Assembly: GCF_963920885.1 (NCBI RefSeq)
Contig: NZ_CAWUDG010000023.1
Location: forward strand, 1 to 64,000
Length of the DNA: 64,000 bases
Direction: 5' to 3'
Source: Anabaena sp. CCY 0017
GTDB taxonomy: Bacteria; Cyanobacteriota; Cyanobacteriia; Cyanobacteriales; Nostocaceae
Numbering within the stretch: position 1 is the stretch's first letter; each line of letters opens with the position of its first letter. Shown here piece by piece: positions 1,301 to 45,704 of the stretch. The notes beneath the pieces were generated by a model. That model did no database searches. It saw nothing but the letters and a program-made list of their open reading frames with translations, and was not told where the DNA came from. Made by a program: the position numbers and the translations under genes.

Positions 1301-1547
1301 GAGCGTAGTCCTAAAATGAAGGGTGATTTTTCACAAATGTGCCTGGTTAAAATACCAGAATTAGGACTGACGCAGAGATCCTCTAAAAAGGGGGAAGTAC
1401 AGAGATTTTACCAATTACTATAGGTCAACGGAAAAAAGTTCCCCATTTGAAATGCTCAAACCCTTACAGAACTGTAATTACGAATTACGTAAAGCCTGCG
1501 GCCTAGCTGCGCTTAGAGCGTAGCTCTCCCAACGGGAGCATTACTAA

Positions 1548-2969
1548 CTACGAATTAGATCCCACAGGTCGGCGACGTTCAAACCACAGTCCGGCGCTAA
1601 TTAATGCTGAACCGCATAAAACAAAGACCAGTGAACGAAAAAGGATGTCAGTGTCGTATTCTAGCACGCGGCTAATAATTTGCAGTGTTAGTAATAGCAT
1701 ACCGCCCCAGAAGGAATTTCTGTTATTTAACTTTAATCCTTCTCGGATTAGCCCTGATGCCAAAAATGCCAACAGTACATTGAAGATGAAACTGCCTAAT
1801 TCATCAATGCGCGTGATAGCTAGATGCCAGAAAGGTGTAATGATGATGAAAGCCAAGAAGGTGGTAACAACAGCAAGAGTGAAAATTATCTCCCGGCGAG
1901 GAGGGTTATTTCTCAGCCGCAGCAGCGACAACCATTGTAATACTGCTAAACCACTGAGGACTCCTAAATCGATCACAGGCAGAGACATGAACAGGTTGTT
2001 TGTGTTATTTGGCACAAAAGAATTAAAGGCTGGGGCTACCCATTGCCAACGAAAAGATAAGGCATAAAACACCAGTCCAAAAAATATTAAGGCTAGGTTA
2101 CGGGCAAGAGGTTGAAATAACCTGTAATTAACTGTCGGGAACAGCAAATCGTCGTAACTCCAGAATAGTGCCGGCGGTAGTGCGAAAGCAAAAGATGCCA
2201 CCCAAGGAGCCATATTAGAGTAATTCAGCAGTGGTAGAGGATTGAGATTCAACTGCAAAGTACCAGCAAAAACTAAGGCTGCTAAGGCGAAAATCCAGCG
2301 CGAGCGACAAAAGTATGCTAAGGGTACAAAGAGTAACCATGATAACAAGGGCATATGTCGCACTAGCAAACGAACCCAGTTTAAGTCGCCTGGAGAAAAT
2401 GACAAATCTCCTCTTCCCATCCAATACCCGATTTGAATGAGGATAATGGCCATAAATCCCAGGGAACTTAAAGACAGACTGTAAGCCATAGCCAAAACAC
2501 CAAATCCCCAAGCAAAAAACAGTTCGGGCATGGAACCGTTAATGTTAAAAGCTTGTGCCATCAGAACTATGTTTGCGCCTAAAATGAAAGCGCTTAAAAT
2601 TAGTAAACTTTCTCCCAGGATGCGTTTGCCTTGTTGCTGTTTATTCTTTTCGTTGTTGCCTGATTTAGCTTGGTTCCATGTAGAAAAACCAGTGATACTT
2701 GTTGAGAGAAACAAACTCATCATCAGGATAAATTTGACTTCTCGTGACCATGTTTGCCAGTTGGCTGCTACAAAGGTAAGTATACCTAAACACAAAAGGA
2801 TACTACCTATAGAAACCACTACTACCACAAAGCGATCGCGTGCAGCAGCTTCTAGGTTATTAAATCGATAACGTTGTCCGAGGTCTTCGTATTGCGAAGC
2901 ACTAATGAGTCCTTCATCTCGCCACAATTGCGCTTCTCGGCGTAATTTCTGGGGAAAATCATCTAACAT
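1548..2969 (-). CDS. polytopic integral membrane protein, DUF2157/DUF4401-like
   Basis: 473-aa ORF with a charged N-terminus (LRREAQLWRDEGLIS...) followed by at least 10 hydrophobic helices. It is paired with the GDYXXLXY gene downstream. Its length is compatible with a DUF2157+DUF4401 fusion. Confidence 0.5.
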   Translation of the reverse strand: MLDDFPQKLRREAQLWRDEGLISASQYEDLGQRYRFNNLEAAARDRFVVVVVSIGSILLCLGILTFVAANWQTWSREVKFILMMSLFLSTSITGFSTWNQAKSGNNEKNKQQQGKRILGESLLILSAFILGANIVLMAQAFNINGSMPELFFAWGFGVLAMAYSLSLSSLGFMAIILIQIGYWMGRGDLSFSPGDLNWVRLLVRHMPLLSWLLFVPLAYFCRSRWIFALAALVFAGTLQLNLNPLPLLNYSNMAPWVASFAFALPPALFWSYDDLLFPTVNYRLFQPLARNLALIFFGLVFYALSFRWQWVAPAFNSFVPNNTNNLFMSLPVIDLGVLSGLAVLQWLSLLRLRNNPPRREIIFTLAVVTTFLAFIIITPFWHLAITRIDELGSFIFNVLLAFLASGLIREGLKLNNRNSFWGGMLLLTLQIISRVLEYDTDILFRSLVFVLCGSALISAGLWFERRRPVGSNS

Positions 2970-3089
2970 TTATGACCATCTCCTGTACAGTGGGTTAGCT
3001 GAAAAATCATGATCAGAATGGCGGTCATTAGACTTTCAGTATGCAGCCAAACCCCTGAATAGCATTGTTCTTCTGTAACAGTTTTACTA

Positions 3090-4070
3090 ATGGAAAAACC
3101 ATCAAATTTATTACTTAAACTCTCCCGGCGTTTGTTTGAAAACCCTGATAAACAAGAAGATTTTATTGATGCGTTAATTAATCCTCAACCTTTTAATCCG
3201 GCTATTCTTTGGTGTCAAAATCAGCCAGAATTGTTGCCTTTTACCGTGGAATCACCAACGAAATGGCAACCAGATTTTGTCAATCGTTTATTATTAGGAG
3301 AAAAGCCCGGTAAGCATCCCCTACATCAAGAAGGTTATTTTTATTGTTTAGATTTTTCTTCTATATTTGCAGCTTCAGTTTTGTTAACAATTCCTCAGCC
3401 AGTCCGGTTAGTTTTTGATATGTGTGCTTCCCCTGGCGGTAAGAGTGTTTTCGCCTGGAAAGCTTTGCAACCTGATTTACTGATTAGCAATGAAGTTATT
3501 GGCAAACGTTTAGGGATGCTAATATCTAATCTTAAACGCTGTCAAATTAGCCCTTGCACTGTAGTTAATCGAGATTCTAGTATTTTTGCCGAAAATATTC
3601 CCTTCTCTAGTGATTTAGTTATAGTAGATGCTCCTTGTACTGGGCAATCTTTACTAGCTAAAGGGGAAAAAGCACCAGGATGTTTTCATCCCACGGCTAT
3701 TAATAGAAGTGCTAATCGCCAAAAAAGAATTATAGCTAACTCTGCTAAATTAGTTGCACCACAAGGATATCTGGCTTATATGACTTGTACTTACTCTGCT
3801 GAGGAAAATGAGCAGGTTTGTGAATGGTTTTTGTCAAAGTTTCCTCAGTTTCAAGCAGTGAAAATTACTTATTTAAATGAATATCAGTCCCACTTAAGTA
3901 ATATTCCTTGTTATCGGCTTTTTCCCCAAGACAGACTGGGTGCGGGTGCGTTTACGGTGCTTTTGCAAAATACTGAAGTTGGTAAAGCACAAGAAATAAA
4001 TTTAGATGATTTGTCTGGGGTTTGGATGAATACGAACCACAGAGGCGCAGAGAACGCAGAGAATTTTTAA
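3090..4070 (+). CDS. RsmB/RsmF (NOP2/Sun) family RNA m5C methyltransferase
   Basis: SAM-binding motif DMCASPGGKS. Catalytic motifs IVDAPCTGQS (motif IV Pro-Cys) and YMTCTYSAEENE (motif VI Thr-Cys). There is no N-terminal NusB domain, so it is RsmF-like. Confidence 0.8.
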   Translation: MEKPSNLLLKLSRRLFENPDKQEDFIDALINPQPFNPAILWCQNQPELLPFTVESPTKWQPDFVNRLLLGEKPGKHPLHQEGYFYCLDFSSIFAASVLLTIPQPVRLVFDMCASPGGKSVFAWKALQPDLLISNEVIGKRLGMLISNLKRCQISPCTVVNRDSSIFAENIPFSSDLVIVDAPCTGQSLLAKGEKAPGCFHPTAINRSANRQKRIIANSAKLVAPQGYLAYMTCTYSAEENEQVCEWFLSKFPQFQAVKITYLNEYQSHLSNIPCYRLFPQDRLGAGAFTVLLQNTEVGKAQEINLDDLSGVWMNTNHRGAENAENF

Positions 4071-4238
4071 ATGAATTAACCACAGATGTACACAGAATTT
4101 AGTCAGGCGCATCTGTGGCTATACCAGCTATCAGACAGAATATGTATAAGTAAACTTATGGTTATTCATAGAGAAAACAGGGGTAACTTTGAGTAAAATT
4201 ACTGAAGTACATTACTGAGATTTAATCTTAAAATATAC

Positions 4239-6722
4239 TTGGATATTTATGGATATTTAATCATGTCAGAAGTGCCTACTCAGTGCCAAAATTTAGCAGA
4301 ACAAGTTGAGTCTATATTAGAACTTTTACAGCAAGAACCATCTTTACGGTCTCAAGATATTACACCTGTGCGGACTTCTTTAGGAAAAGTTATTTCTCCA
4401 AAGTTTGAAATTGTGTTTGCTGGTGCATTTAGTGCGGGTAAGTCAATGTTGATTAATGCACTACTAGAACGGGAGTTATTATATAGTGCAGAAGGACACG
4501 CTACAGGTACAGAATGCAAAATTGAATATGCAGAAATAAATGCAGAACGGGTTGTTTTAACATTTTTAAGTGAAGTAGAAATTCGCGAACAAGCTAGTTT
4601 TTTATGTCAACAGTTGGGAGTTAAAACAGCCGTTAATATCAATGAAGCTGAAATAGTTAATGTCTTGCGTCAAGGTTGTCAGGGTATTATTCAGCACGAA
4701 GGTGGGGAAAGTAGATCGGAACGCGCAAAGCAAGCGCAGGCTTTAATATTGCTGCTGGATGGTTATGAGGCGAATCGCCAACATATTCATACTATGAATA
4801 ATGCCACATATTCGATGGAGGAATTTAATTTTTCTAATCTCAAGGAAGCGGCTGGCTATGCGAGACGTGGTAGTAATAGCGCTGTTTTAAAGAGAATTGA
4901 ATATTACTGCAACCATCACCTTTTAAAGGATGGTAATGTCATTATCGACACACCAGGAATTGATGCGCCAGTAGAGAAGGATGCACAGTTAACTTACGCC
5001 AAAATTCAACATCCTGATACATCGGCGGTGGTGTGTGTGTTGAAACCTGCTTCTGGTGGTGATATGACGAAGGAAGAAACGCAACTGTTAGAAAAAATGC
5101 GAGACAATGCGGGAATACGCGATCGCATCTTCTACACCTTCAACCGCATTGACGAAACTTGGTATAATACCCAATTAAGGCAGCGTTTAGATGATTTAAT
5201 TAGCAGCCAGTTTCGGGATACGAGTAGGGTTTATAAAACCAGTGGATTACTAGGATTTTACGGGAGTCAAATTAAACAGACAAGTATCCAGGATAGATTC
5301 GGTTTAGATTCGATTTTTGCAGAGAGTATTAAAAGTCTGGATGGTACAGAAGAAACCCCGCAATTTATTCATGAGTTTAATAAATACTGTATCTCCGGTA
5401 AACTTGCACAAACTCAGTTCAACATTTACTTCAATAATGACACTCCCAATAAAAATTATGTGCGGATTTTATCTGAACATGGAACGCCTTTAATTAATCA
5501 GCTAATTCGAGATAGCGGTATTGAGGAATTCAGCACAGCTATTACTAAATATTTAGTAGAAGAAAAGCGTCCACAGCTTTTTAAAACCCTGGCTGATGAT
5601 TTGCAAGAAATTTGTATTAAATTGAAAAAATATTATCAAGATGAGCAAAGAGATTTAGATAGTCAACCACGAGAAATTGAGGCGATGAAGGCGCAAGAGT
5701 TGCAACGCCTGAATCAGCAATTACAGCAAGTAGGAAAAGATTTTGACGAGCATATCAAAGATGAAGTCAACGAAATAATTAATAATTCCTGTGATAGTTT
5801 TGAGTCCGATTTTCGATTACTACAATCACGGATGATTCGACGTTTAGATGAGTTGGTAGATACTTTTTCTGCAAGTGATGCTTATCAACGTTCTACTCGC
5901 AGTCATCCCCGGAATTCAACTGCGCCTTTACTAGCTGTTTTAGTAGAAGCATTATACTATTTAGCAAATGAATTAGAAGATGTTTTGATAGATGCTTCCC
6001 AGGAATTAGTTGCTAATTTGTTTCGGCAATTAATGGAAAAGATTCGCCAATCAGAATACTATCGTCAATTGTATCGCTTGTTAGGTAATGATGGCGGCAT
6101 TGAACAAAAGGTAAAAACTGTAGAAAAAATAGTGTCTCAGGTTTTAACAAGTGATGCTAGTGTAGAGTGCGATCGCTTCGTGAAAGAAAGTCATAGATTT
6201 TATGATGAAGGTACTTTTTCTATCTATCAATTTCGCCAAACTTTGCTGCAAACCTCCCAAGGTTATGACTCCCAAAGCATAGTAGAAGCAGAACCAGCAA
6301 TTAGACAATTGTTAAAGTTAGATTTTGAACCAAAGGTGAAGAAAACAATTCGCCAAACCTTCCGCCAAACTATCAACCAAACTATCAACACTCAGTTGTT
6401 ACCAATGGCGGAACAACAAGCCGATGATATTTTGCAGCAGTACCCCCAAGCACGTGCTTACTTAGAGAAAACTTTGCAAGAAGAAGCTGAAGATAAAATT
6501 ATCAAGAATCAACGTTTATTGAGTGTTATTGAACAAAAAGTAGCAGATTATAATTCCGCAGTTTCACACGTTAATAATTGCTTAGAATCCATGCAATTGT
6601 ATAAGCATTTATTACCTGTAATTGGTAATGACGATATTCAACCACTTGTAACCGATGCAGAAGTTGTGGAATTTGCCAATAAAGATGTTTATATTGCTGA
6701 TAGTTTAGTCGGGAATATATAG
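4239..6722 (+). CDS. bacterial dynamin-like GTPase (DLP1)
   Basis: 827 aa. G1 P-loop GAFSAGKSMLINALL, G3 IIDTPGIDAP, G4 FNRID. A long helical neck/trunk region (coiled-coil-like, Q/E/L rich) follows the GTPase domain. The architecture matches BDLP-type dynamins. Confidence 0.8.
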   Translation: MDIYGYLIMSEVPTQCQNLAEQVESILELLQQEPSLRSQDITPVRTSLGKVISPKFEIVFAGAFSAGKSMLINALLERELLYSAEGHATGTECKIEYAEINAERVVLTFLSEVEIREQASFLCQQLGVKTAVNINEAEIVNVLRQGCQGIIQHEGGESRSERAKQAQALILLLDGYEANRQHIHTMNNATYSMEEFNFSNLKEAAGYARRGSNSAVLKRIEYYCNHHLLKDGNVIIDTPGIDAPVEKDAQLTYAKIQHPDTSAVVCVLKPASGGDMTKEETQLLEKMRDNAGIRDRIFYTFNRIDETWYNTQLRQRLDDLISSQFRDTSRVYKTSGLLGFYGSQIKQTSIQDRFGLDSIFAESIKSLDGTEETPQFIHEFNKYCISGKLAQTQFNIYFNNDTPNKNYVRILSEHGTPLINQLIRDSGIEEFSTAITKYLVEEKRPQLFKTLADDLQEICIKLKKYYQDEQRDLDSQPREIEAMKAQELQRLNQQLQQVGKDFDEHIKDEVNEIINNSCDSFESDFRLLQSRMIRRLDELVDTFSASDAYQRSTRSHPRNSTAPLLAVLVEALYYLANELEDVLIDASQELVANLFRQLMEKIRQSEYYRQLYRLLGNDGGIEQKVKTVEKIVSQVLTSDASVECDRFVKESHRFYDEGTFSIYQFRQTLLQTSQGYDSQSIVEAEPAIRQLLKLDFEPKVKKTIRQTFRQTINQTINTQLLPMAEQQADDILQQYPQARAYLEKTLQEEAEDKIIKNQRLLSVIEQKVADYNSAVSHVNNCLESMQLYKHLLPVIGNDDIQPLVTDAEVVEFANKDVYIADSLVGNI

Positions 6723-6773
6723 CCTTTTTCATCGTATAGCTATTTATCTCGTCTTCTGTTTGTACAACATACA

Positions 6774-6804
6774 GATCCCCGACTTCTTGAAGAAGTCGGG
6801 GATC
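6774..6804 (+). terminator. perfect 14-bp stem / 3-nt loop hairpin downstream of DLP1
   Basis: GATCCCCGACTTCT-tga-AGAAGTCGGGGATC lies 52 nt after the DLP1 stop. No U-tract follows it, so it may be a Rho-independent-like terminator or a regulatory palindrome. Confidence 0.4.
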
Positions 6805-6842
6805 TAAGCCTCTCGCTTGTGCCAAATCAACGAGGGTAATTC

Positions 6843-7088
6843 ATGAATAAAACGCCCCGCATTCCTATCCCGCCTTCAGTGAGAAAATATGTCTTTGAAC
6901 GTGACAAATACCAATGTCAAAGCTGCGGTAAAACCAAGTTAGAAACTAACTTGACAATTGATCATATCATTCCTCTAGCCCGTGGCGGTCAAAACGATAT
7001 GAGCAACTTACACACCCTCTGCTTTACTTGTAACCAGCAAAAAACCGATAAAATTGACCCGCGATTCCGGCGACATTTTCAGGATTAG
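6843..7088 (+). CDS. stand-alone HNH endonuclease (81 aa)
   Basis: A CxxC...CxxC zinc-finger frames an HNH core: 'CQSCGK...DHIIPLARGGQNDMSNLHTLCFTCN'. Confidence 0.75.
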   Translation: MNKTPRIPIPPSVRKYVFERDKYQCQSCGKTKLETNLTIDHIIPLARGGQNDMSNLHTLCFTCNQQKTDKIDPRFRRHFQD

Positions 7089-7245
7089 ACATTTCCCAAC
7101 AATCCCATTTACTTTGTGCTACATTGAGTAATGAGGCGTAATACACAGGCTTTGTTATGGTTTGGGTTCTGTATACCCAACTGGCGCGCCAACCACTGGA
7201 TTGACCGTGTACTACAAAGTAACCTGTAACGTCACACATAAACCC

Positions 7246-7317
7246 AAGGAGTTAGCTCACTGGTAGAGCAATCGACTAGAAATCGATGTGTTACAGGTTC
7301 GATTCCTGTACTTTTTA
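7246..7317 (+). tRNA. tRNA-like gene with canonical cloverleaf but anomalous anticodon loop CUAGAAA (anticodon AGA); possible pseudo-tRNA or orphan tRNA
   Basis: Folded by hand. Acceptor AAGGAGU/ACUUUUU with G3·U70 and G4·U69 wobbles. U8, D-arm GCUC-ACUGGUA-GAGC (A14, G18G19). Anticodon arm AUCGA-CUAGAAA-UCGAU (U33 and A37 present). 5-nt variable loop. T-arm ACAGG-UUCGAUU-CCUGU. Discriminator A73. CCA is not encoded. Confidence 0.45.
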
Positions 7318-7742
7318 CCCACCCTTCCAAGGTGAAAACACAAACCTGAAAAGGTTACTAGAAACTCTGTAATGTAGGCTTACTAGCGCTCATCACTTGT
7401 GGTGTTCGGTAGTAGCAGTGAAGAAGCCAGCGCCAATTTTCTCTCCCTGACTTGAGTCTGTCCCTTCGGTTTCCCTATCCAGAGTTCTGGAACTGGCTAC
7501 CTGAACGGCAGATTTGAGGGTTGTTGTCTGTTTCTAGATTACCCAAGGGTAGTTTAGGAATAAGTACCAGCCTTCTTAATCCAGTTTTGGATGTGACATT
7601 TGCCCGCAACTGAACTGTAAAAACCTACATTTGCAGAGTTTTAAAATTTAATGTAGTATGTGTAGTATTAAGGCAAAAGTTATCTGCTAATTAAGTTATT
7701 GGCACTAATGCCTGATAACGGGAGCATCCCACTTTTTTAGCC

Positions 7743-7960
7743 CGTCATTGCGTTCGCGTAGCGTGGCTTTAGCCATACGTAACGAAGTAGAGTGAAGCAA
7801 TCGCAAAATCTTTCACTAAGAACGAGTCCATGCGATTGCTGAGTCGCAAGGCGACACGCTACGCGGTAAGCGTTCGCGTTAGCGTGCCGGAGGCTCTAGC
7901 TATGCCGAAGGCTTTACGTCGTTCCTCCTCTCTGCGAGACGCTACGCGAACGCAATGACA
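7743..7960. repeat. compound palindromic short dispersed repeat (GTCATTGCG...CGCAATGAC family)
   Basis: Terminal inverted repeats TCATTGCGTTCGCGTAGCG / CGCTACGCGAACGCAATGA, with internal CGCGTAGCG-type sub-palindromes. It shares GAAGCAATCGCAA and ATGCGATTGCT cores with the element at 59298-59397. Confidence 0.6.
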
Positions 7961-8019
7961 ATATTATTCTTCTACTGAGGAATAAAAACTGGGATGCACC
8001 CCTGATAACTCCTTTACCT

Positions 8020-9606
8020 ATGTTTTTATTAAACTTTTTTCGTCGGCTAAAACTGCCTAAATTATCTATGAAAATTTCTTTGTGGAAAACTTTTTATATC
8101 AAGCCTAACGAAATTGGGATTTTGTATCAACGCAGTGATTTTCAGAAAATTTTGCAACCTGGTACTTACAACTATTTTGGTCGGCACTGGAATGTAAAAA
8201 CCTATGACCTCAATCAACCAGAGTCTCAAATTGAGAACTTGGAATTGTTGCTGCGAAATCATAGCGCAGAGTTACAGCCACATCTGTTAGTAGTTAAAAC
8301 GGCATTTAATGAAACTGCTTTAGTTCGCTGTGGTCAAAATTGGGTCAGTGTTGCCCCTAATCAATTAAAGGCTTTTTGGCGTGGTTTTATTGAAGTAGAA
8401 TCCCATGTTTTCAACTTAGATGAAAACTTGGAATTACCTGCTGAATTTGTGCAGCAACTACGGGTAAATACCTTAAATGGCATCAAAAAATTCCAAATTT
8501 TTGAGTACGAAATTGGTTTGCTGTACGTGCAGAATAATTTTGTACGCCCCCTAGTAACCGGAGAGTACGCTTTTTGGGCTGTAAATAGAGATGTTTCAGT
8601 GCGGACTCTCAGCCGGATGATTCCAAATCCAGAGTTTCCCTTAGAAGATATCTTGATTTCACAACATCCCGATTTTGTAGAGGCTTATTGCAAAACTGTC
8701 GAATTACAAAATCAACAAGTTGCGATCGCTCGTTATCAAGGTAAAGTCATTAGTATCCTACCCCCATGCAGTCGCAAGCTGTTTTGGCGAGATGTAGAGG
8801 TCGAAGTAATTGACATCAGCACCGATGCTAAATTGTCCTCTGACTTAGTTGCTGAGTTAGTTGTGGGTCTACCTGAAGCTGTAATTTTGAGCCTCAATAG
8901 TTTACATATTGCCTACATACCCCCCCAGTATGTGGGACTGTTGTACATCAATCAAGAGTTTCAAACACAACTCCAGTCCGGGAATCACGCTTGGTGGGTG
9001 TTTGGGCGTTCTGTAAACACAGAAATTTTTGACCTCCGCCAACAAACAATGGAACTATCCGGCCAAGATATTTTATCCAAAGATAAAGTACCTTTGCGCC
9101 TCAACTTAACTGCTGGCTACCGCATCACCGACCCACTCACAGCCAAAAACCGTTTATCGGATCTCACTAGCTACTTATACAAAGAGCTACAATTTGCTTT
9201 GCGTGGTGCTGTAGGTGAAAAAACTCTAGATGCCTTACTAGAAGATAAAGGGGCAATTGATAGCAGTATTTTTGATTACATTCACCAAAAAACCGCCGAC
9301 TATGGCATAGAAATAGATTCGGTTGGAGTCAAAGATATTATTCTCCCTGGTGAAATTAAAACGATTTTAGGGAAAGTAGTAGAAGCAGAAAAAATAGCCC
9401 AAGCTAACGTTATCCGTCGTCGTGAAGAAACGGCTGCTACTCGCAGTATGTTAAATACTGCCAAAGTAATGGAAGATAACCCCGTAGCATTGCGTTTAAA
9501 GGAGTTAGAAGTATTAGAAAGAATTGCTGAGAAGATTGAGAAAATCCAAGTCAATGGAAGTTTGGATAGTATTTTGACCGACTTAGTGCGGATGAATCGC
9601 GATTAA
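8020..9606 (+). CDS. SPFH/band-7 (stomatin-prohibitin-flotillin) domain protein with triplicated N-terminal segment
   Basis: 528 aa. The C-terminal part (LRLNLTAGYRITDP ... EAEKIAQANVIRRREETAA ... ALRLKELEVLERIAEK) is typical SPFH core plus helical tail. It is preceded by three tandem about-150-aa segments, each beginning with an EIG(I/L)LY...F...L.(P/T)G.Y.(F/W) element that resembles the first beta-strands of SPFH domains. Confidence 0.7.
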   Translation: MFLLNFFRRLKLPKLSMKISLWKTFYIKPNEIGILYQRSDFQKILQPGTYNYFGRHWNVKTYDLNQPESQIENLELLLRNHSAELQPHLLVVKTAFNETALVRCGQNWVSVAPNQLKAFWRGFIEVESHVFNLDENLELPAEFVQQLRVNTLNGIKKFQIFEYEIGLLYVQNNFVRPLVTGEYAFWAVNRDVSVRTLSRMIPNPEFPLEDILISQHPDFVEAYCKTVELQNQQVAIARYQGKVISILPPCSRKLFWRDVEVEVIDISTDAKLSSDLVAELVVGLPEAVILSLNSLHIAYIPPQYVGLLYINQEFQTQLQSGNHAWWVFGRSVNTEIFDLRQQTMELSGQDILSKDKVPLRLNLTAGYRITDPLTAKNRLSDLTSYLYKELQFALRGAVGEKTLDALLEDKGAIDSSIFDYIHQKTADYGIEIDSVGVKDIILPGEIKTILGKVVEAEKIAQANVIRRREETAATRSMLNTAKVMEDNPVALRLKELEVLERIAEKIEKIQVNGSLDSILTDLVRMNRD

Positions 9607-9800
9607 TTAATATCAAATCTGGTTAATTAGTTTTTAAATTCCGTCTATTTTGGAACCTGGAATTCTTGAGCAGAGTATATTATTCAGTTGTAGCTTGATT
9701 TCTAAACTGTAACCTCATTACAAAAACTACGGTTTTCAAGGTGGTCGCGGTCTAATATGACCTAGTATTCTGACGGTTTACCACTTTTTCTAAGATACAA

Positions 9801-9874
9801 GGGTGTGTTGTCGCCTAGCGCTACGCACCATCCCAGATTCTCGGTGCGTTATAGGTGTTCAACCTAACACGCCC
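9801..9874. repeat. palindromic short dispersed repeat (GTGTTGTCGC-TAGCG...CGCACC family)
   Basis: GGGTGTGTTGTCGCCTAGCGCTACGCACC...GGTGCGTTATAGGTGTTCAACCTAACACGCCC. Related copies lie at 1488-1545, 16039-16095, 35701-35775 and 47040-47228. Confidence 0.5.
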
Positions 9875-10116
9875 TATGCTTTACCTGCAATCAGCAAAAA
9901 ATCCGTCACCCTGATGCTCACCTCCGGCGGCGGTTTCAGAACTTTAAAGAGCAGTTTTAATGTACCTGTACAGTGTAGTTATTATTAAAGCAAGGCAGCA
10001 CAGCGTTTAAAATATATACTTCTAATAGAAAAGTGTTTATAATTACCTTTACAGATATTAAATAACCATCAGCCAATTATCGCAGGATTTAATCTGATTG
10101 AGAGATAAAGGTATTA

Positions 10117-12249
10117 ATGAATTTCTCTAGTAATTTTCAGTTTATTGGGTCTTGTAGTCAACAGTTGGAAGAACTTGGAAAGAAAGCAGAACGGCTTTAT
10201 AGCCTGAATGAACCCATTCCTTGTTTAATCACTCTCCGTACTTATGCGGAGTATTTAGTTGACCTAGTTACTATTAAGTTGGGTATTTATGCTCCTGAAG
10301 AAACCTTAAGCGATCGCCTCAGACATATTGAAGCTACCTTTCATGCCCAAAAAGCAGATATAGTTTTTATCCTGCAACGATTGCATAAACTCCGACGGGA
10401 TGGTAATCGAGCCGTGCATCAATTTGCAGGAGATAACAAAACTGCTGCAACCAATCTCTGCATCGCTTATGAAATAGGTATTTGGTACTTTAAAGCATTC
10501 AAGAATACTGATTTTATTCCCCCTAATTTTGTATTACCTAAATTTCAGCCTGACATTGATATTTTGCAAATTCAGGAATTGAAATCTACCCAACAAACAT
10601 ATCAGGAGTCTCAGCAGGTTAAGATAGAACTTTTACAAGCTGATCTTGAGCGATTGAAGAACGGGGTACAGATTAATAACGCTAAAGTAGCAACGGACTT
10701 AATGAGAGTAATGATTACAGATATAGAAAATGAAAGTGAACTCAACTGTTCCCAAGAATGGTCTCAGGGATTTGATCATACTACCGCCCTCTTCCACAAA
10801 GCAGAATTGATTTTACGGCAAATTAGCACTTTGATTGGTAAACGTAACTCTGAACCGTTCAACCTTTCCTCCAATGAAAGTATTCTGCCCGGTTTAGGTT
10901 TAGTCAACGATGCCATAGCCTTAGAAGCTAAAGCCGATGACATACAACAAGGTATTTTCAAATTAATTGTCATTGGTGAATTTAAACATGGCAAGAGTAC
11001 TCTTTTAAATGCCATACTTGGTAGTAAAGTCTTACCTGTATCTGCTATGCCAGCAACCGCAGTTATTACTATGTTGGTAGCTGGTGAGCATCAGCAAGTA
11101 GAAATTTATGAAGCAGGAAAAGATGAACCCCGCACAATCAGTTTGGAAGAGTTTAACCGGGAATTCCGCCTGAGTCCACAAGATATTGAAACTATTAACA
11201 AACAAGGTTTTTTAGATCGATTCGAGAATATTCAGTACGCCAAGATTCAGTGTCAGCACCATTTTTGTACTCAAGGAATTAGGCTCATCGACTCACCTGG
11301 ACTAGCTGAACAAGTTACTAGAACGAGGGTAGCAACTAACTTTTTTGAACAATCGCAAGCTGCTATATTTGTACTCAATGCTAAACAACCGTTAGGAGAA
11401 GCTGAACGAGAATTTATCCAAACTCACTTCAAACCTGGTTTTGTTGATCATGTTTTCTTTGTTGTGAACCAGATTGACCTCATAGATGAGGACGAAGTTG
11501 AATCACTCAAAGATTACTTCCGATTATATCTCAAAGATTATTTTCTCAATATGGCTGGGCAACCTGACTTAGAAAAGTGTAACAAACATTTGTTTTTTAC
11601 CAATGCTAAAGCTGCTTTAAAAGCCCGTCAATCTAATCCAGTGAATCAGCCGAAACTAGAAGCATCCGGCATTTTGGAATTGGAAAAAACACTAGAAATA
11701 TTTTTGACCAGTGCGGAGAAAGTTCGGGCTGGCTTAAGTTCCGCCTTTAAGCTGCTAGTAAGTATTATCTATGAAGCTCATATCCGAATTGACTTAGGAA
11801 AGGCTGCTTTAGACCAATCCTTGGCAGAATTAGAACAGCGCCGAACTGAGTCAGAAACTCGACTACAGGCTTTGGAGAAAAAGAAAGAAGATATTCAGGA
11901 AACTATTCGACTTTACAGTGAAGTAATTGCAGTCAAGCTTTGCGCGAGTTTAGATCAGCATATTACAGACATGAATACTCTTTGGCTATCTGAAGCTGGT
12001 GAATATATTACAGTAGAGATTTTTAATCCCCTAACTATTGCTAAAGCTTTAGTTGATTCCTGCGCAAAGGAAAGACTCAAACGATCAGCTTCAAGTGATG
12101 TCCAGAGATATTTAGAGGCTAAATTTAAAGACTGGGCTGACCAAGGGGAGCAACGCGAAAATGTGAGATCGAATTTTATATCTCAATTACCAGGGCTGAT
12201 TCCTAATAAACCCTGGTCGAAGTTCCCTATTTTTACCTTTTCTAGGTAG
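10117..12249 (+). CDS. bacterial dynamin-like GTPase (DLP2), GTPase-neck-trunk portion ending at an in-frame TAG
   Basis: 710 aa. G1 GEFKHGKSTLLNAILG, G3 LIDSPGLAEQ, G4 VVNQID. Helical trunk. It ends at TAG 12247-12249, and the same reading frame stays open into 12250-13062. Confidence 0.8.
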   Translation: MNFSSNFQFIGSCSQQLEELGKKAERLYSLNEPIPCLITLRTYAEYLVDLVTIKLGIYAPEETLSDRLRHIEATFHAQKADIVFILQRLHKLRRDGNRAVHQFAGDNKTAATNLCIAYEIGIWYFKAFKNTDFIPPNFVLPKFQPDIDILQIQELKSTQQTYQESQQVKIELLQADLERLKNGVQINNAKVATDLMRVMITDIENESELNCSQEWSQGFDHTTALFHKAELILRQISTLIGKRNSEPFNLSSNESILPGLGLVNDAIALEAKADDIQQGIFKLIVIGEFKHGKSTLLNAILGSKVLPVSAMPATAVITMLVAGEHQQVEIYEAGKDEPRTISLEEFNREFRLSPQDIETINKQGFLDRFENIQYAKIQCQHHFCTQGIRLIDSPGLAEQVTRTRVATNFFEQSQAAIFVLNAKQPLGEAEREFIQTHFKPGFVDHVFFVVNQIDLIDEDEVESLKDYFRLYLKDYFLNMAGQPDLEKCNKHLFFTNAKAALKARQSNPVNQPKLEASGILELEKTLEIFLTSAEKVRAGLSSAFKLLVSIIYEAHIRIDLGKAALDQSLAELEQRRTESETRLQALEKKKEDIQETIRLYSEVIAVKLCASLDQHITDMNTLWLSEAGEYITVEIFNPLTIAKALVDSCAKERLKRSASSDVQRYLEAKFKDWADQGEQRENVRSNFISQLPGLIPNKPWSKFPIFTFSR

Positions 12250-12288
12250 CGATCGCTCAATACCCAGGTAACTTATATTACAAATTTT

Positions 12289-13062
12289 TTGCACCTCACA
12301 AAATCGCGTTGCTCCCCTGACCAAGTACCTTTAGTTGCTGAGGGTGAATTGCAAAGATTAGCACTTAAATTAGAAGGTGAGATATCTACTTTTGCCAAAG
12401 AACTCTCCAATATCGAAAACTTATTTTCCGGGAATATGCCTCATGTTTCATCTACAGTTGAGGAGATTTCTAAAAATCGTGTAGATAAAATTTTACAACT
12501 AGCTGTTGGTTTAGTCATGATGGACTTTAGCGGATTTGCTGGTACTCTCATGGGGAGAGGAAATTGGATAGGTTTCATCCAAGCCGCAATTTTTCAAGCA
12601 GCATTAGGAACTTTTATCTTTTCATTATTTGAAGGTCCATTTGGTATTGTAACTTTCGTGTTCGTAGAAATTTTCCAATTTGTCATGAATCAAAATAGAC
12701 ATGAGCAAGAGATTCTCAAAAATATTGGTAAAAAAATACATGATGAACTCAAAAATCGTTCTCCTGAAATGAGGTTATCTCTCACTTGTAGAACCAAGGA
12801 ATCTTTCTGGAACCTTTCAGATAAACTAACACAAACATTACAAAAACAGATTGACGAAGTGAGAAATGAACAAGAAAGAATTATTACCCAAAAACGAAAC
12901 TATACATTTTCTACAAATGAAGAAAAAAATCGTATGAATCGAATTGGAGACGAACTTTTGCAACTTTTCAATAATTTGTCTGAAGTCACTTATGGTAAAA
13001 CATATACCCTAGAACAGTTAAAGTGGTTAGCTACAGGTAAAAAAATGTTGGAAGAGAAATAA
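12289..13062 (+). CDS. hydrophobic paddle-like plus helical segment, in-frame continuation of DLP2 after a TAG (read-through product, pseudogene half, or separate small membrane protein)
   Basis: Same frame as 10117-12249, with 13 sense codons (12250-12288) between the TAG and the TTG the ORF-caller used. There is no recognisable RBS. It contains an about-60-aa hydrophobic stretch (ILQLAVGLVMMDFSGFAGTLMG...IVTFVFVEIFQFVM) followed by charged helical sequence, as expected for a BDLP paddle and returning trunk helices. Confidence 0.5.
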   Translation: MHLTKSRCSPDQVPLVAEGELQRLALKLEGEISTFAKELSNIENLFSGNMPHVSSTVEEISKNRVDKILQLAVGLVMMDFSGFAGTLMGRGNWIGFIQAAIFQAALGTFIFSLFEGPFGIVTFVFVEIFQFVMNQNRHEQEILKNIGKKIHDELKNRSPEMRLSLTCRTKESFWNLSDKLTQTLQKQIDEVRNEQERIITQKRNYTFSTNEEKNRMNRIGDELLQLFNNLSEVTYGKTYTLEQLKWLATGKKMLEEK

Positions 13063-13073
13063 ATATAATATTC

Positions 13074-15242
13074 ATGTTAATTAATGAAAAAATTGAATCT
13101 GGTATTATTACCCTCTTAAAAAATCTCAATACACCTCCTCAATCTATACTTTACACCGAATATCAAGCTTATTTAACACCTTTAAAAGAGTTTGAATTAC
13201 AACTAAAAAAGCAGAATAAACAAGCTGTAATTTTCGGAGCTTTTAAAGCAGGTAAATCTACACTCATCAATGCTTTGTTGGGTTCATCTTGGCTACCATC
13301 TCGAAGTAATCGAGCCACAGGAGTTCCCACTCATATTGTTTACCATCACCTACCTGCTGCTTGGGTTAATCATAGTCAATTAATTTCTCCAGAGCAGATT
13401 GGACAGTACATCCTCTTAGATACTTCTCAAGGTAGCTCGGAAGCACCGGATGGTGTTCAATCCGTTAAACTAGGTTTGCCATTACCCCTACTCAAAAATC
13501 AGTGGTCTTTGGTGGATACACCTGGGTTACTAGATAATGCGACTCTTTCAGAAGTCACACTCCAACAACTTCAACAGGCGGATTTGGCAATTGTTGTCTT
13601 GCTTGCCAGTAAATTGTTGGCTGAAGCAGAGCGAGAGGTAATTCAGCAAGTTAACACTTTACTCAAAGGTAATTTAGTTATTATTATCAATCAAATTGAT
13701 CAGATTGATCTAGAAGAAAGAGAACTTCTGATTTCCTGGGCTAATAGTTGTTTAACAGGTATAGGAAATCGATTAGTGGGTTTTCCAGCCCTGTTTACAA
13801 CTGCTGCAAAAGCTTGGCTCAAACAAGATGAGCCAGAAATGCTAGAAACACGAATAGCCTTCCAAAACCACATGAAGATGATTTTCTATGAACTGTTGGG
13901 AAATCGAGTAGCTTTATTGTCTAGACTGTCAATTCTTGAATCTCACTTGCAAGAAAGAACTGCTTATTTTAAAATTCAGTTACTGAATATAAAACAACAG
14001 ATTCAAAAACTGGAATTGGAGGCAGAAGAAGACCTCAAACATCGACAAATTACTTTTAACAAACTTATTGAGGAGATAACTTGCGGAATAGATTTAATGC
14101 AAGTACCATTAATTACTTCCTTGGCACAAATGGAGATGGATTGTTGTAGAGAAGTTAAATTTCAAATTGACAAAAATAATCCTGAATGGTTAGGTGCTGC
14201 TCGTGGTCAAATAAATAATGCTGCCAATGCTTATATCATTGAAGTAAAACAAAAATCTTCTGTTATACTTAATAAAATTAAGATTGTTTTACCTATCTTT
14301 AATCGAGAAGCTTTAGATATCTGTCAACAAGCCAGTATTAGTGAGGATTTAGCAACCAGAATAACTAAAACCATAGGTAAATCTGAAGCTCTGGGATTCA
14401 TTCGTGGCGCTGCAAAAGTATTTTCTTTAGATTTAAAACAGAAGAATTTAGAGAAAGTAAAATCATTGCTGCAAAAGTGTGTTTATCAGATGCGGCAAAA
14501 TACGCAAGAATATATTGATAATTTGCATAGCTTAGTCGCAGATTATCAGGTAGTACATCAACCAAAGAGAGAGATATCTGACAAGCTCAAAAATGCATAT
14601 CAAAATAGTGTGGATTATGAAAAATTCATAAATTGGATTAGTTCATGCCGAGAAAATATTCAACCTATTATAGAAGAAGTAATGAGTGTAGTTTCTGAAT
14701 TTGAGGATATATGGGATAAATTTACTAAGCTGGCCGTTAGTGAATTTATGCAAAAGCGTCAGGATAAGAAAAATAAAAAAATTGACCTAAATCAACTAGC
14801 AAATCAAGTTATTAAAGAGAATTGCCAAACCAGATGGGATAATCCATCCCATTATAATTATGCCTGGTTAGAAAAATTAAAGCGTGAAAATTATGAAGTT
14901 GGACAAGAACTCAGTGATCTTATTCATTCAGTAAGTATTAATAAACTATTGAATAAGAAAAAACTTATAGATAGAAAAGAGGTTGTGATATTAGTAATTA
15001 CTATTGTTTTATCATTAGTTATTTTGTTGTGGGGGCAAAATATTCAAGATATCAGAGTTTTCAGTTTTTCTAGACAATCTGCCATTAGTATGATAATTTT
15101 GTCTTGGGGTTATTTTTTTATGAAAAAAAGTATGGATGAGCGTGATAAGAAATTTGAACGAAATCTCCATCAAACTATTAAAACTGAGATAGAAACATAC
15201 AAGTTGCAGGCAATAAATATTTTAAAAAGAATTAATTTTTAA
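13074..15242 (+). CDS. bacterial dynamin-like GTPase (DLP3) with C-terminal hydrophobic hairpin
   Basis: 722 aa. G1 GAFKAGKSTLINALLG, G3 LVDTPGLLDN, G4 IINQID. Hydrophobic segment VVILVITIVLSLVILLWG...MIILSWGYFFM near the C-terminus. Starts 11 nt after the preceding stop, so it is operonic with DLP2. Confidence 0.8.
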   Translation: MLINEKIESGIITLLKNLNTPPQSILYTEYQAYLTPLKEFELQLKKQNKQAVIFGAFKAGKSTLINALLGSSWLPSRSNRATGVPTHIVYHHLPAAWVNHSQLISPEQIGQYILLDTSQGSSEAPDGVQSVKLGLPLPLLKNQWSLVDTPGLLDNATLSEVTLQQLQQADLAIVVLLASKLLAEAEREVIQQVNTLLKGNLVIIINQIDQIDLEERELLISWANSCLTGIGNRLVGFPALFTTAAKAWLKQDEPEMLETRIAFQNHMKMIFYELLGNRVALLSRLSILESHLQERTAYFKIQLLNIKQQIQKLELEAEEDLKHRQITFNKLIEEITCGIDLMQVPLITSLAQMEMDCCREVKFQIDKNNPEWLGAARGQINNAANAYIIEVKQKSSVILNKIKIVLPIFNREALDICQQASISEDLATRITKTIGKSEALGFIRGAAKVFSLDLKQKNLEKVKSLLQKCVYQMRQNTQEYIDNLHSLVADYQVVHQPKREISDKLKNAYQNSVDYEKFINWISSCRENIQPIIEEVMSVVSEFEDIWDKFTKLAVSEFMQKRQDKKNKKIDLNQLANQVIKENCQTRWDNPSHYNYAWLEKLKRENYEVGQELSDLIHSVSINKLLNKKKLIDRKEVVILVITIVLSLVILLWGQNIQDIRVFSFSRQSAISMIILSWGYFFMKKSMDERDKKFERNLHQTIKTEIETYKLQAINILKRINF

Positions 15243-40813: not shown

Positions 40814-42190
40814 TTATAAATTACTTTTATTCGCAACTAACAAAATTTCGTTACGACTAGCCGCACCCAATTCCGGTGAAAAATATTTAGGAGAATGGGG
40901 AGTAATTGTAGAGGGAATATTGGGAACTACTTCTAACTTTTCTACCAGAGCTTGTAACAGCTTATCTTGATTAGCGCGGAAAGCTGGTATTTGTGGACCA
41001 CGGTTAATAATAGCAAACCATACCAAACCGCGATCGCGTGTAGGAATGACTCCAGCTAAAGCGCTCACCTCTCGCAAAGTACCAGTTTTCATCACAGTAG
41101 CATGAGGCATATTTCTATATCGCATTGTTCCCCGACGGTCAAATCCAGAGCTAGGAAACAAGTCAGCCACATTAATTTTATGGGTCGATGCTTCCCGTTG
41201 AATCGCCATTAACATCGCACAAGCGGCTCTCGGAGAAATGCGATTGTCTACTCCTAATCCTGAACCATTAATTAACTGAATTTCTGCCTCTGGTACTCCA
41301 GCCAATTTAGCAGCTTTCGATTGCATGACAGCAGCGCCTCCCACCGATTCCGCCAACATTTCTGCCATGACGTTGTTACTGAACACGTTCATTTCCTTAA
41401 TTAATTGCTGCAAAGGTAAAGAACGGCGACGTACCAGTAGGGTTTCTTGAGGATTTGGTTGGGTTGCTACTTTCACATTTCCCGCAATTACTACTTGAGG
41501 TTTAGCTGTACCCTTCGGCATAATGGAATATATGTAATTTGCTGGACGAGTCCAAGTTGCATAATTCAGTGCCTGCTTGAGCATTTGCCCAGCTAATATG
41601 GGATTGGGTTCAAAATTCATGGCGAATTTGCCGTTTATGAGCAGATTTCCCTTTACCTGCTTAATACCCATTTTATTCAGAGTATTACCCAGTGCGATCG
41701 CTTCTTCCCAAACAAACATCGGATCACCACCGCCGGTAATCACCAAATCACCCTGCAAAACCCCGTTAACTATTCGCCCTGTCGTGCTGACCAAAGTCTC
41801 AAATTGGTGGTCTGGCCCCCAAGTTTTCAAAGCCACAAGTGAAGTCGCAATTTTGGTTAAAGAAGCAGCAGGCAGAGGTGTAGTACCTTGATGATTAGCC
41901 ATCAACATCGGCCCCGACTGCATCCAAATGCCTTGACTCTCCGCTAAGTTTTCCGCTACCAGCTTCGAGGAAATCATTCCCTGCAAATATTTCTGAACTG
42001 TAGTCGAACCGGCTGGATTGGGGTCAGGTGCCAGAACCAAGCCAGGGCTACTTTGCCAAGCTAATGCCTGTAAGGCTTCTGTAGGCTTAATTTGTACCCC
42101 AGCCATTTCTAGCCATACAGAAACTAAACCTGAACCCAATAATTCCAGCATACTTTCTTCCTCTAAATAGTTTCCTGTGCTAATATACAA
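40814..42190 (-). CDS. dacB: D-alanyl-D-alanine carboxypeptidase/endopeptidase (PBP4 / peptidase S13 family)
   Basis: SxxK active site (ASLTKIATS), SxN (FSNN) and KTG (MKTGT) motifs in the correct order. 458 aa. Confidence 0.8.
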   Translation of the reverse strand: MYISTGNYLEEESMLELLGSGLVSVWLEMAGVQIKPTEALQALAWQSSPGLVLAPDPNPAGSTTVQKYLQGMISSKLVAENLAESQGIWMQSGPMLMANHQGTTPLPAASLTKIATSLVALKTWGPDHQFETLVSTTGRIVNGVLQGDLVITGGGDPMFVWEEAIALGNTLNKMGIKQVKGNLLINGKFAMNFEPNPILAGQMLKQALNYATWTRPANYIYSIMPKGTAKPQVVIAGNVKVATQPNPQETLLVRRRSLPLQQLIKEMNVFSNNVMAEMLAESVGGAAVMQSKAAKLAGVPEAEIQLINGSGLGVDNRISPRAACAMLMAIQREASTHKINVADLFPSSGFDRRGTMRYRNMPHATVMKTGTLREVSALAGVIPTRDRGLVWFAIINRGPQIPAFRANQDKLLQALVEKLEVVPNIPSTITPHSPKYFSPELGAASRNEILLVANKSNL

Positions 42191-45363: not shown

Positions 45364-45704
45364 GCCTAAAAACCTTTGCCAATTATATTTCTGAGTTTGG
45401 TGAAAATTCTACCATAGCAAAAACAGCCGCTAAGAAGTCAAAAATGTACATTTGCAACGAAGTTAAAGAAATTATGGACAAACATAAGGAACCGCCCAGA
45501 CAATAGTCCGGGCGGAGTGTGGTGTGAGGAGTGAACGGAAACATCTGTCTCCGCTATCTCTATTGTAGGCGACATATCGGATTTTTCCAGAGATTGTTTA
45601 AGAGTCTGGAAAATTTTTTCAACAAGAATTTGAGTTGGGGACTGGGGATCAGTAAAGAATTTATTTCTTATTAGTGATTCCTACCTCCCTATTCCCCATT
45701 TTCT

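Follow-up and report, generated by a model that had tools for sequence, protein, structure and literature searches.

The question raised by the first 64,000 nucleotides of contig NZ_CAWUDG010000023.1 of Anabaena sp. CCY 0017 (assembly GCF_963920885.1; this whole stretch is hereafter referred to as the window) is why a gene for a dynamin-like protein (DLP) is divided by a single in-frame stop codon. The upstream open reading frame (ORF; 10117-12249) starts with ATG and specifies 710 amino acids (aa) before ending at a TAG (12247-12249), and the downstream ORF (12289-13062) starts with TTG, specifies 257 aa, and is in the same frame. Translation of 10117-13062 encountered one stop only, confirming what an earlier, model-made inspection of the sequence (the sequence-only reading) had described as two ORFs in one frame divided by a single TAG with no further stop. 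In the public annotation, the two halves are separate genes of a source taxon in the Nostocaceae: the 710-aa product is 100% identical to P0002, 'dynamin family protein [Anabaena sp. CCY 0017]', and the 257-aa product is 100% identical to P0086, 'hypothetical protein [Anabaena sp. CCY 0017]'. The sequence-only reading offered four explanations, i.e. a recent nonsense mutation or pseudogenisation, a sequencing error, programmed read-through, and a genuinely split protein whose paddle is supplied in trans, but it missed that the stop sits midway in a 180-nucleotide (nt) insertion that is absent from every orthologue. Our analysis indicates, with a probability of roughly 0.93, that a transposable element of the miniature inverted-repeat type (MITE) recently inserted into a gene of the bacterial dynamin-like protein (BDLP) type, that the TAG came with the MITE, and that the gene is most likely non-functional, a young pseudogene.

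The proposal that both ORFs are parts of one BDLP-type gene was borne out by the domain matches and by the existence of full-length orthologues. The Pfam profile PF21808 (bacterial DLP helical domain, 373 positions) is split at the stop, with positions 10-172 matching the upstream ORF and positions 187-373 matching the downstream ORF, and each half alone scores just under the gathering score. Because one profile match is divided across the stop in this manner, the two ORFs are the halves of one gene and their co-linearity is not due to chance. The upstream ORF contains the GTPase domain Dynamin_N (PF00350; aa 284-452, E = 1.3e-24). In the downstream ORF, hydropathy analysis identified a hydrophobic stretch of ~72 aa (aa 65-136, nt 12481-12696), and the paddle-like segment that had been noted there, with a length of about 60 aa, is indeed present. 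The upstream product had been described as having no hydrophobic segment, and this point requires correction: hydropathy and alignment revealed a single hydrophobic 19-aa window (aa 304-323), which lies inside the conserved GTPase core (PATAVITMLV), is part of that core, and is not a membrane segment.

When positions 12146-12325 are deleted, an open frame of 921 codons for a 921-aa BDLP-type protein is obtained. The best solved relative of this restored protein is the BDLP of Nostoc punctiforme (2J68; E = 1.8e-38, query residues 259-892 aligned with BDLP residues 48-679). As in the Nostoc protein (2J68, 2J69, and 2W6D), a GTPase domain is followed by a helical neck and trunk, a hydrophobic paddle, and returning helices, with 634 residues aligned, whereas the window protein differs in having an extra HsdR-like N-terminal domain of ~190 aa and in being interrupted by the MITE. 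A GTPase domain and a helical domain with a hydrophobic paddle are thus both encoded, but they form one uninterrupted polypeptide only in the orthologues and not in CCY 0017. In the alignment with 2J68, the insertion point corresponds approximately to BDLP residue 461, which is located in the trunk, upstream of the stretch aligned with the hydrophobic region.

Each of the seven full-length orthologues aligned is a single protein, namely P0001 (974 aa, ~91% identity over aligned positions), P0003 (930 aa), P0004 (952 aa, from Cyanothece sp. PCC 7425), and P0005, P0006, P0009, and P0034 (916-954 aa). The sequence-only reading had asked whether relatives encode one protein of about 980 aa, and the sizes found (916-974 aa), with no orthologue split, answer in the affirmative. 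In the multiple alignment, a contiguous block of 60 residues that holds the stop, QGEQRENVRSNFISQLPGLIPNKPWSKFPIFTFSR*RSLNTQVTYITNFLHLTKSRCSPD, is absent from all seven proteins, and two more metagenome loci (L103 and L104) are also uninterrupted across the site, so that none of nine uninterrupted orthologous sequences contains the block. The stop and the surrounding 180 nt being absent from every orthologue, the idea of programmed read-through finds no support in this comparison. Nor is there support for a protein designed as two pieces, in which the paddle would act in trans; no orthologue is split.

The reference for the empty site was L001, a JGI metagenome contig containing the DNA that encodes P0001. 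In the DNA alignment of the window with L001, the flanks are ~96% identical and are separated by one clean gap of 180 nt. The empty site in L001 reads GACTGGG-CTGACCAAG-TACC, in which CTGACCAAG is present as a single copy, whereas the window contains CTGACCAAG at both 12137-12145 and 12317-12325, i.e. as a mismatch-free 9-bp direct repeat in which the two copies are offset by exactly 180 nt. A point nonsense mutation (e.g. CAG or TGG to TAG) was ruled out by this comparison, in which a 60-codon insertion and no substituted codon was found. The first of the four earlier explanations was therefore partly right: recent pseudogenisation is the closest to the truth, whereas a nonsense mutation is not what occurred, the TAG having come with the MITE insertion.

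Between the left (12137-12145) and right (12317-12325) target-site duplications lies a non-coding body of 171 bp (12146-12316, where either end could be placed one base differently), and the body and one 9-bp duplication together account for the total addition of 180 bp, or 60 codons. The termini of the insert are inverted repeats of 22-24 nt, GGGAGCAACGCGA...TCGCGTTGCTCCC. The left terminal inverted repeat (TIR), GGGAGCAACGCGAAAATGTGAG, occupies 12146-12167 on the forward strand and was delimited by the inverted repeat and by alignment with the ends of related insertion sequences (ISs; see below), and the right TIR, with the reverse complement GGGAGCAACGCGATTTTGTGAG, occupies 12295-12316 on the reverse strand and is identical at 22 of 22 positions to both IS ends in L028 and L042. 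The 24-nt arms of the inverted repeat, AGGGGAGCAACGCGAAAATGTGAG (12144-12167) and CTCACAAAATCGCGTTGCTCCCCT (12295-12318), are 88% complementary, and the insert as RNA folds into a long hairpin (-59.2 kcal/mol, z = -6.2 compared with shuffled sequences). At least one stop is present in each of the six frames of the insert, with exactly one in the frame of the host gene. The element is a MITE: it has TIRs, a target-site duplication that is single-copy at the empty homologous site of a close relative, a small size (171 bp, within the range of about 100-500 bp for MITEs), and no coding capacity. An intein, an intron, and a known structured RNA were also considered as the identity of the block and rejected, as no significant Rfam match was found at 12000-12500 and the block has the hallmarks of a transposon. 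The palindromic octamer GCGATCGC, read from the sequence at 12249-12256 inside the element, is one that we take to be the cyanobacterial HIP1 palindrome. Consensus scans detected no promoter-like or terminator-like site within 12146-12316, which is weak evidence either way.

These boundaries also bear on the possibility of a sequencing or assembly artefact, in which case the real genome would contain an intact single gene. The source is a draft assembly (a 69,130-bp contig), and repeats of this IS/MITE family often break assemblies, many matches to it being located at contig ends. However, an artefact would not place a complete element, with an inverted terminus on either side, between perfect 9-bp duplicates at precisely the site that is single-copy in the orthologue. 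The sequencing error listed in the sequence-only reading is very unlikely for the same reason, the TAG being embedded in a 180-nt block with TIRs and a target-site duplication, and since four other genomes have copies of the element in which the codon is kept, a base-call error there is not the cause. An artefact of either kind, with an intact gene in the organism, is in our view extremely improbable.

The TAG at 12247-12249 is the second TAG of the motif TAGGTAGCGAT, which is common to the four closest copies of the element in other genomes (L102, L032, L056, and L020). It was therefore delivered with the element and arose neither by later mutation nor by a base-call error; a scenario in which the element inserted as an open in-frame segment and acquired the TAG by subsequent mutation was ruled out by the same motif. 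The TTG at 12289, for which no ribosome-binding site had been seen, is likewise explained, because both this TTG and the 39-nt 'linker' that precedes it are element sequence.

If the TAG were subject to programmed or leaky read-through, a full-length DLP with a 60-residue insert would be produced together with a soluble truncated isoform. The length of the insert (180 nt, 60 codons) and the single stop in the frame of the gene would be compatible with such a product, and in-frame fusions of MITEs with host ORFs are known, e.g. the Rickettsia palindromic elements (RPEs; PMC10969869). Like the window element, RPEs are small palindromic mobile elements situated in coding regions and of frame-preserving length, but the RPEs have no stop in the host frame and become part of the translated protein, whereas the window element has a stop in every frame, and its TAG belongs to a DNA motif that is also conserved in copies outside genes. 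No amber-suppressor tRNA (CUA anticodon) is encoded in the window, the two tRNAs of which have the anticodons AGA and GTG, and no Rfam family or recoding structure was found at 12000-12500. Of the features that would characterize a recoding site, neither conservation of the stop and its context among the orthologues nor a suppressor tRNA or stimulatory RNA was observed. Furthermore, judging from the alignment with 2J68, 59 unrelated residues inserted into a trunk helix would be likely to have a disruptive effect. We consider such read-through very improbable.

The family to which the element belongs was surveyed in a collection of species-representative genomes by searching for exact matches to a 23-nt terminus pattern, GGGGAGCAACGCGAWWWTGTGAG. 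In total, 100 stretches containing the pattern were found; all of those with an order-level name are from Nostocales, and a few are metagenome-assembled genomes (MAGs) named only as cyanobacteria. The genera represented include Nostoc, Anabaena, Trichormus, Nodularia, Calothrix, Rivularia, Scytonema, Sphaerospermopsis, and others. Many matches are located at contig ends, as expected because the repeat is multi-copy. The distance spanned by paired inward-facing termini is most often 149 bp, with further classes at 170-216 bp (including the window copy with 171 bp), ~500-560 bp, and ~1950-1990 bp. Of the 42 terminus pairs, 24 are flanked by direct repeats with a length of 7-9 bp (8 bp in most cases, 9 bp in the window copy). 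Short copies account for 28 of the pairs, many with 8-9-bp duplications of their own, so that the copies dispersed over unrelated sites that are typical of a MITE are present. The 149-bp class has only the terminal 28-45 nt in common with the window copy, and closer relatives were found elsewhere: a copy with 90% identity over 172 nt lies between annotated genes on plasmid pNFSY06 of Nostoc flagelliforme CCNUN1, a copy in a Trichormus MAG is 95% identical over 131 nt, and Anabaena cylindrica UHCC 0172 as well as an uncultured cyanobacterium have more copies of the same subfamily.

The copies of ~1.96 kb (L028, 1704-3667; L042, 4716-6681) contain one ORF of 487-518 aa, which matches the ISKra4 transposase profile NF033572 (E = 9.4e-34, profile positions 64-422 of 422) with 117 bits, below the 205-bit cut-off, and matches the ISLre2 profile NF033529 more weakly (E = 2e-8). 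No Pfam match was obtained for this ORF, and its plasmid homologues in Nostocales are named 'ISLre2 family transposase' by PGAP. The two window termini are identical at 22 of 22 and 19 of 22 positions to both ends of the full-length IS (L028 and L042). By these similarities, the window element is a type I MITE, i.e. one with termini in common with a transposase-encoding IS of other Nostocales genomes, and its body appears to be derived from an ISKra4/ISLre2-type IS. The IS/MITE family, with its termini GGGAGCAACGCGA, duplications of 8-9 bp, and ISKra4/ISLre2-type transposase, is widespread in Nostocales and was matched to no named element, the comparison with the element Nezha (see below) being by description only; a search of the accessible literature with the terminus sequence turned up only unrelated papers.

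Several observations on other members of the family were made in the course of this survey. In several draft genomes among L003-L089 (e.g. those of Nostoc sp. CCY 9925 and Anabaena lutea FACHB-196), the terminus lies 30-130 nt from contig ends or makes up whole contigs of 56-59 nt, and draft assemblies of Nostocales are therefore often broken by this family. In L028 (Nostoc sp. UHCC 0252), a full-length copy of the putative parent IS at 1704-3667 is flanked by an 8-bp duplication, ACATTTAG, and is located between two same-strand ORFs (1376-1771 and 3630-4181). By eye, these ORFs look like the halves of one methyltransferase-like gene (region 1376-4181); if so, this would be a second interruption of a coding region by the family. 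In the window, a 14-mer at 41120-41133 on the reverse strand, GGGGAACAATGCGA, matches the MITE terminus with two mismatches but has no adjoining element sequence detectable by BLAST; it may have arisen by chance or be what is left of a very old copy.

The prokaryotic Mutator-like transposases of the ISKra4 and ISLre2 families (p-MULT 3 and 4) are found in Cyanobacteria and generate direct repeats of 8 or 9 bp (Guerillot et al. 2014, PMC3942029), which fits the duplications seen here. The putative parent IS of the window element resembles these families in having a single DDE transposase of 487-518 aa, a length of about 1.7-2.0 kb, termini that start with GGG, and 8-9-bp duplications. It departs from ISKra4 in the sub-threshold score of its transposase and in the ISLre2 label of PGAP, and its termini, GGGAGCAACGCG, are unlike those of the Calothrix members of ISKra4, GGGTGCGACTC.... 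In addition, the window insertion is inside a gene, whereas some members of these families are reported to be located upstream of a promoter.

Disruption by a MITE is an ordinary kind of gene disruption for Anabaena. In Anabaena sp. 90, 15 ORFs are disrupted by MITEs (PMC3542288), and in Baltic Sea Anabaena, mcy (microcystin) genes were inactivated by MITEs of 127-204 bp, according to citations of Fewer et al. (2011) in PMC3184786 and PMC10969869. The published Anabaena MITEs resemble the window element in their host group, size (about 130-220 bp), lack of coding capacity, TIRs, flanking direct repeat, and strong hairpin, and in cutting an ORF in one strain that is intact in relatives. Compared by description only, those of Anabaena sp. 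90 were reported to be type II, without an IS with the same termini in that strain, in contrast to the type I window element. The closest named element by description is Nezha of A. variabilis and Nostoc sp. PCC 7120, which is a MITE of 130-170 bp with termini in common with ISNpu3, as Zhou et al. (2008) are cited in PMC3184786. It is likewise a MITE of Nostocales with a similar size and with TIRs and direct repeats shared with a full-length IS, and its recent mobility was recognized from filled and empty sites. None of the records that matched the 23-nt terminus exactly in the species-representative scan is named for A. variabilis, PCC 7120, or N. punctiforme, and no plasmid match was found in those strains.

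The age of the insertion was assessed from the two native parts of the gene. The values of dN/dS relative to L001 are 0.29 and 0.30 for the upstream and downstream parts, respectively. With P0003 as the outgroup, window-specific and P0001-specific amino-acid changes number 16 and 22 in the upstream part and 3 and 11 in the downstream part, and the cut-off downstream half shows neither decay nor an excess of lineage-specific changes. Given equal purifying selection on both halves, the lack of a lineage-specific excess, and a perfect target duplication, the insertion is recent relative to the ~6% nucleotide divergence from L001.

The same absence of decay can be taken as a sign that the DLP remains functional in two pieces, in which case the 710-aa GTPase/half-stalk polypeptide and a separately initiated paddle fragment of ~240-257 aa would be translated from one mRNA and would reassemble via their helical bundles. 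Both halves have stayed intact, extra stops and frameshifts being absent, and the downstream half shows no relaxed constraint, but a recent insertion explains the missing decay equally well. A sequence resembling a Shine-Dalgarno sequence, GAGGG (12340-12344), precedes an in-frame TTG at 12349 with a 4-nt spacer and could permit the C-terminal fragment to be initiated internally; however, the combination is ordinary coding sequence, occurs in the uninterrupted orthologue L001 as well, and is probably fortuitous. Consensus scans found no terminator-like site in or after the element. An exhaustive HMMER search of a library of 1.84 billion proteins yielded ~20 short (100-275 aa) C-terminal-only DLP sequences, but these come without genomic context, and several plainly start mid-protein and resemble fragments from contig ends. 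Most of the proteins found by HMMER with the C-terminal fragment are at least 650 aa long and match it at their C-terminus, and no evidence for a split family emerged. A word-indexed search with a 270-aa fragment returned only the 257-aa ORF of the window itself; it missed homologues such as P0001 and is uninformative with respect to stand-alone paddle proteins. No split was found among the full-length relatives compared, and the N-terminal fragment would end in a tail of 34 junk residues. We therefore give the two-piece DLP a small chance of being correct.

Two facts weigh against the reading of the locus as a young, MITE-disrupted pseudogene. The downstream half is intact and in frame, with possible starts at TTG 12289 and at TTG 12349 (the one preceded by GAGGG), and neither another copy of the element nor a matching transposase gene is present within the 64-kb window, so that mobilisation in this strain is inferred. 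That the MITE-split DLP is still active in any form, whether as two reassembling polypeptides with re-initiation at TTG 12289 or 12349 or via low-level read-through of the TAG, is nevertheless improbable; if it were true, a transposon would have made a naturally split or dual-isoform membrane-remodelling GTPase.

Under the favoured explanation, disruption by a recently inserted MITE, the events may be reconstructed as follows. A non-autonomous MITE (171-bp body plus 9-bp duplication) inserted in the coding region of the helical domain, about 60-75 codons upstream of the point at which the hydrophobic stretch aligned with the paddle begins, presumably mobilised in trans by an ISKra4/ISLre2-type (prokaryotic Mutator-like) DDE transposase. 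By chance, the added length is a multiple of three, leaving the downstream half in frame, and, with one TAG of the element in the host frame, translation ends after 676 native and 34 element-encoded residues. The predicted product would consist of the GTPase and half of the stalk; the paddle and the C-terminal helices would be missing. In the BDLP architecture, the helices returning after the paddle complete the trunk and neck bundles. Because the 710-aa product lacks both the paddle and the returning helices, it is most likely non-functional.

The native sequence of the gene is thus confined to two segments on the forward strand. The 5' part (10117-12145) comprises codons 1-676 and the first base of codon 677, encodes the HsdR-N-like domain, the GTPase of dynamin type, and the initial half of the helical domain, and has ~91% aa identity to P0001; the 3' part (12326-13062) encodes the final trunk helix preceding the paddle, the paddle itself with its hydrophobic stretch, and the C-terminal helices. 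The last 34 residues of the 710-aa gene model and the first 10 of the 257-aa model, including its TTG start, are transposon sequence. The two models represent one MITE-disrupted gene, for which a label as a pseudogene or interrupted gene is due, and hypotheses on soluble versus membrane-bound DLP isoforms should not rest on this locus. The delineated MITE/IS family should be useful for repeat annotation in Nostocales. Strain CCY 0017 is a naturally occurring mutant for one DLP of a cluster that encodes several, and its comparison with a relative that has the empty site could be used to probe the role of this DLP.

The N-terminal region of the split DLP (aa 1-193, 10117-10700) resembles the N-terminus of the type I restriction enzyme HsdR (NF008521, E = 1e-26 over aa 4-193; PADLOC REase_I, 1e-12; PDC-M16A, 4e-19), giving an architecture in which a restriction-enzyme N-terminal domain is fused to a BDLP-type dynamin. 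PF13643 was found in five of the seven aligned orthologues, these being the more distant ones.

A partner DLP gene of 722 aa (13074-15242, forward strand; Dynamin_N, E = 2.4e-20) starts 11 nt after the split gene, and the spacing is likewise tight in L001, where the corresponding genes are located at 8001-10925 and from 10935 onwards. The partner gene is probably in the same operon as the split gene. It may still be transcribed, as no terminator-like site was found in the element, but if its expression depends on translational coupling, this would be disturbed by the premature stop.

In total, three dynamin-like GTPase genes (4239-6722, 10117-13062, and 13074-15242, the last with a C-terminal hydrophobic segment by eye) are present within 4239-15242, together with an 81-aa HNH-type ORF (6843-7088) and a gene for a 528-aa SPFH/Band-7 protein (8020-9606). 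Weak PADLOC matches to LeoA/LeoBC hint that this cluster might be a defence or membrane-stress island. Between the DLP/HNH pair and the SPFH gene, a 74-nt tRNA gene is encoded on the forward strand (7246-7319), which was assigned to Ser with the anticodon AGA by ARAGORN and scored 62.9 bits with the Rfam tRNA model. It has no long variable arm and a weak, G-U-rich acceptor stem, and both its anticodon and its shape are unusual for a bacterial tRNA-Ser. Elsewhere in the window, the cyanobacterial small RNA Yfr1 (Rfam RF01116) was identified at 45490-45554 on the reverse strand with 57.7 bits, compared with a gathering score of 38.

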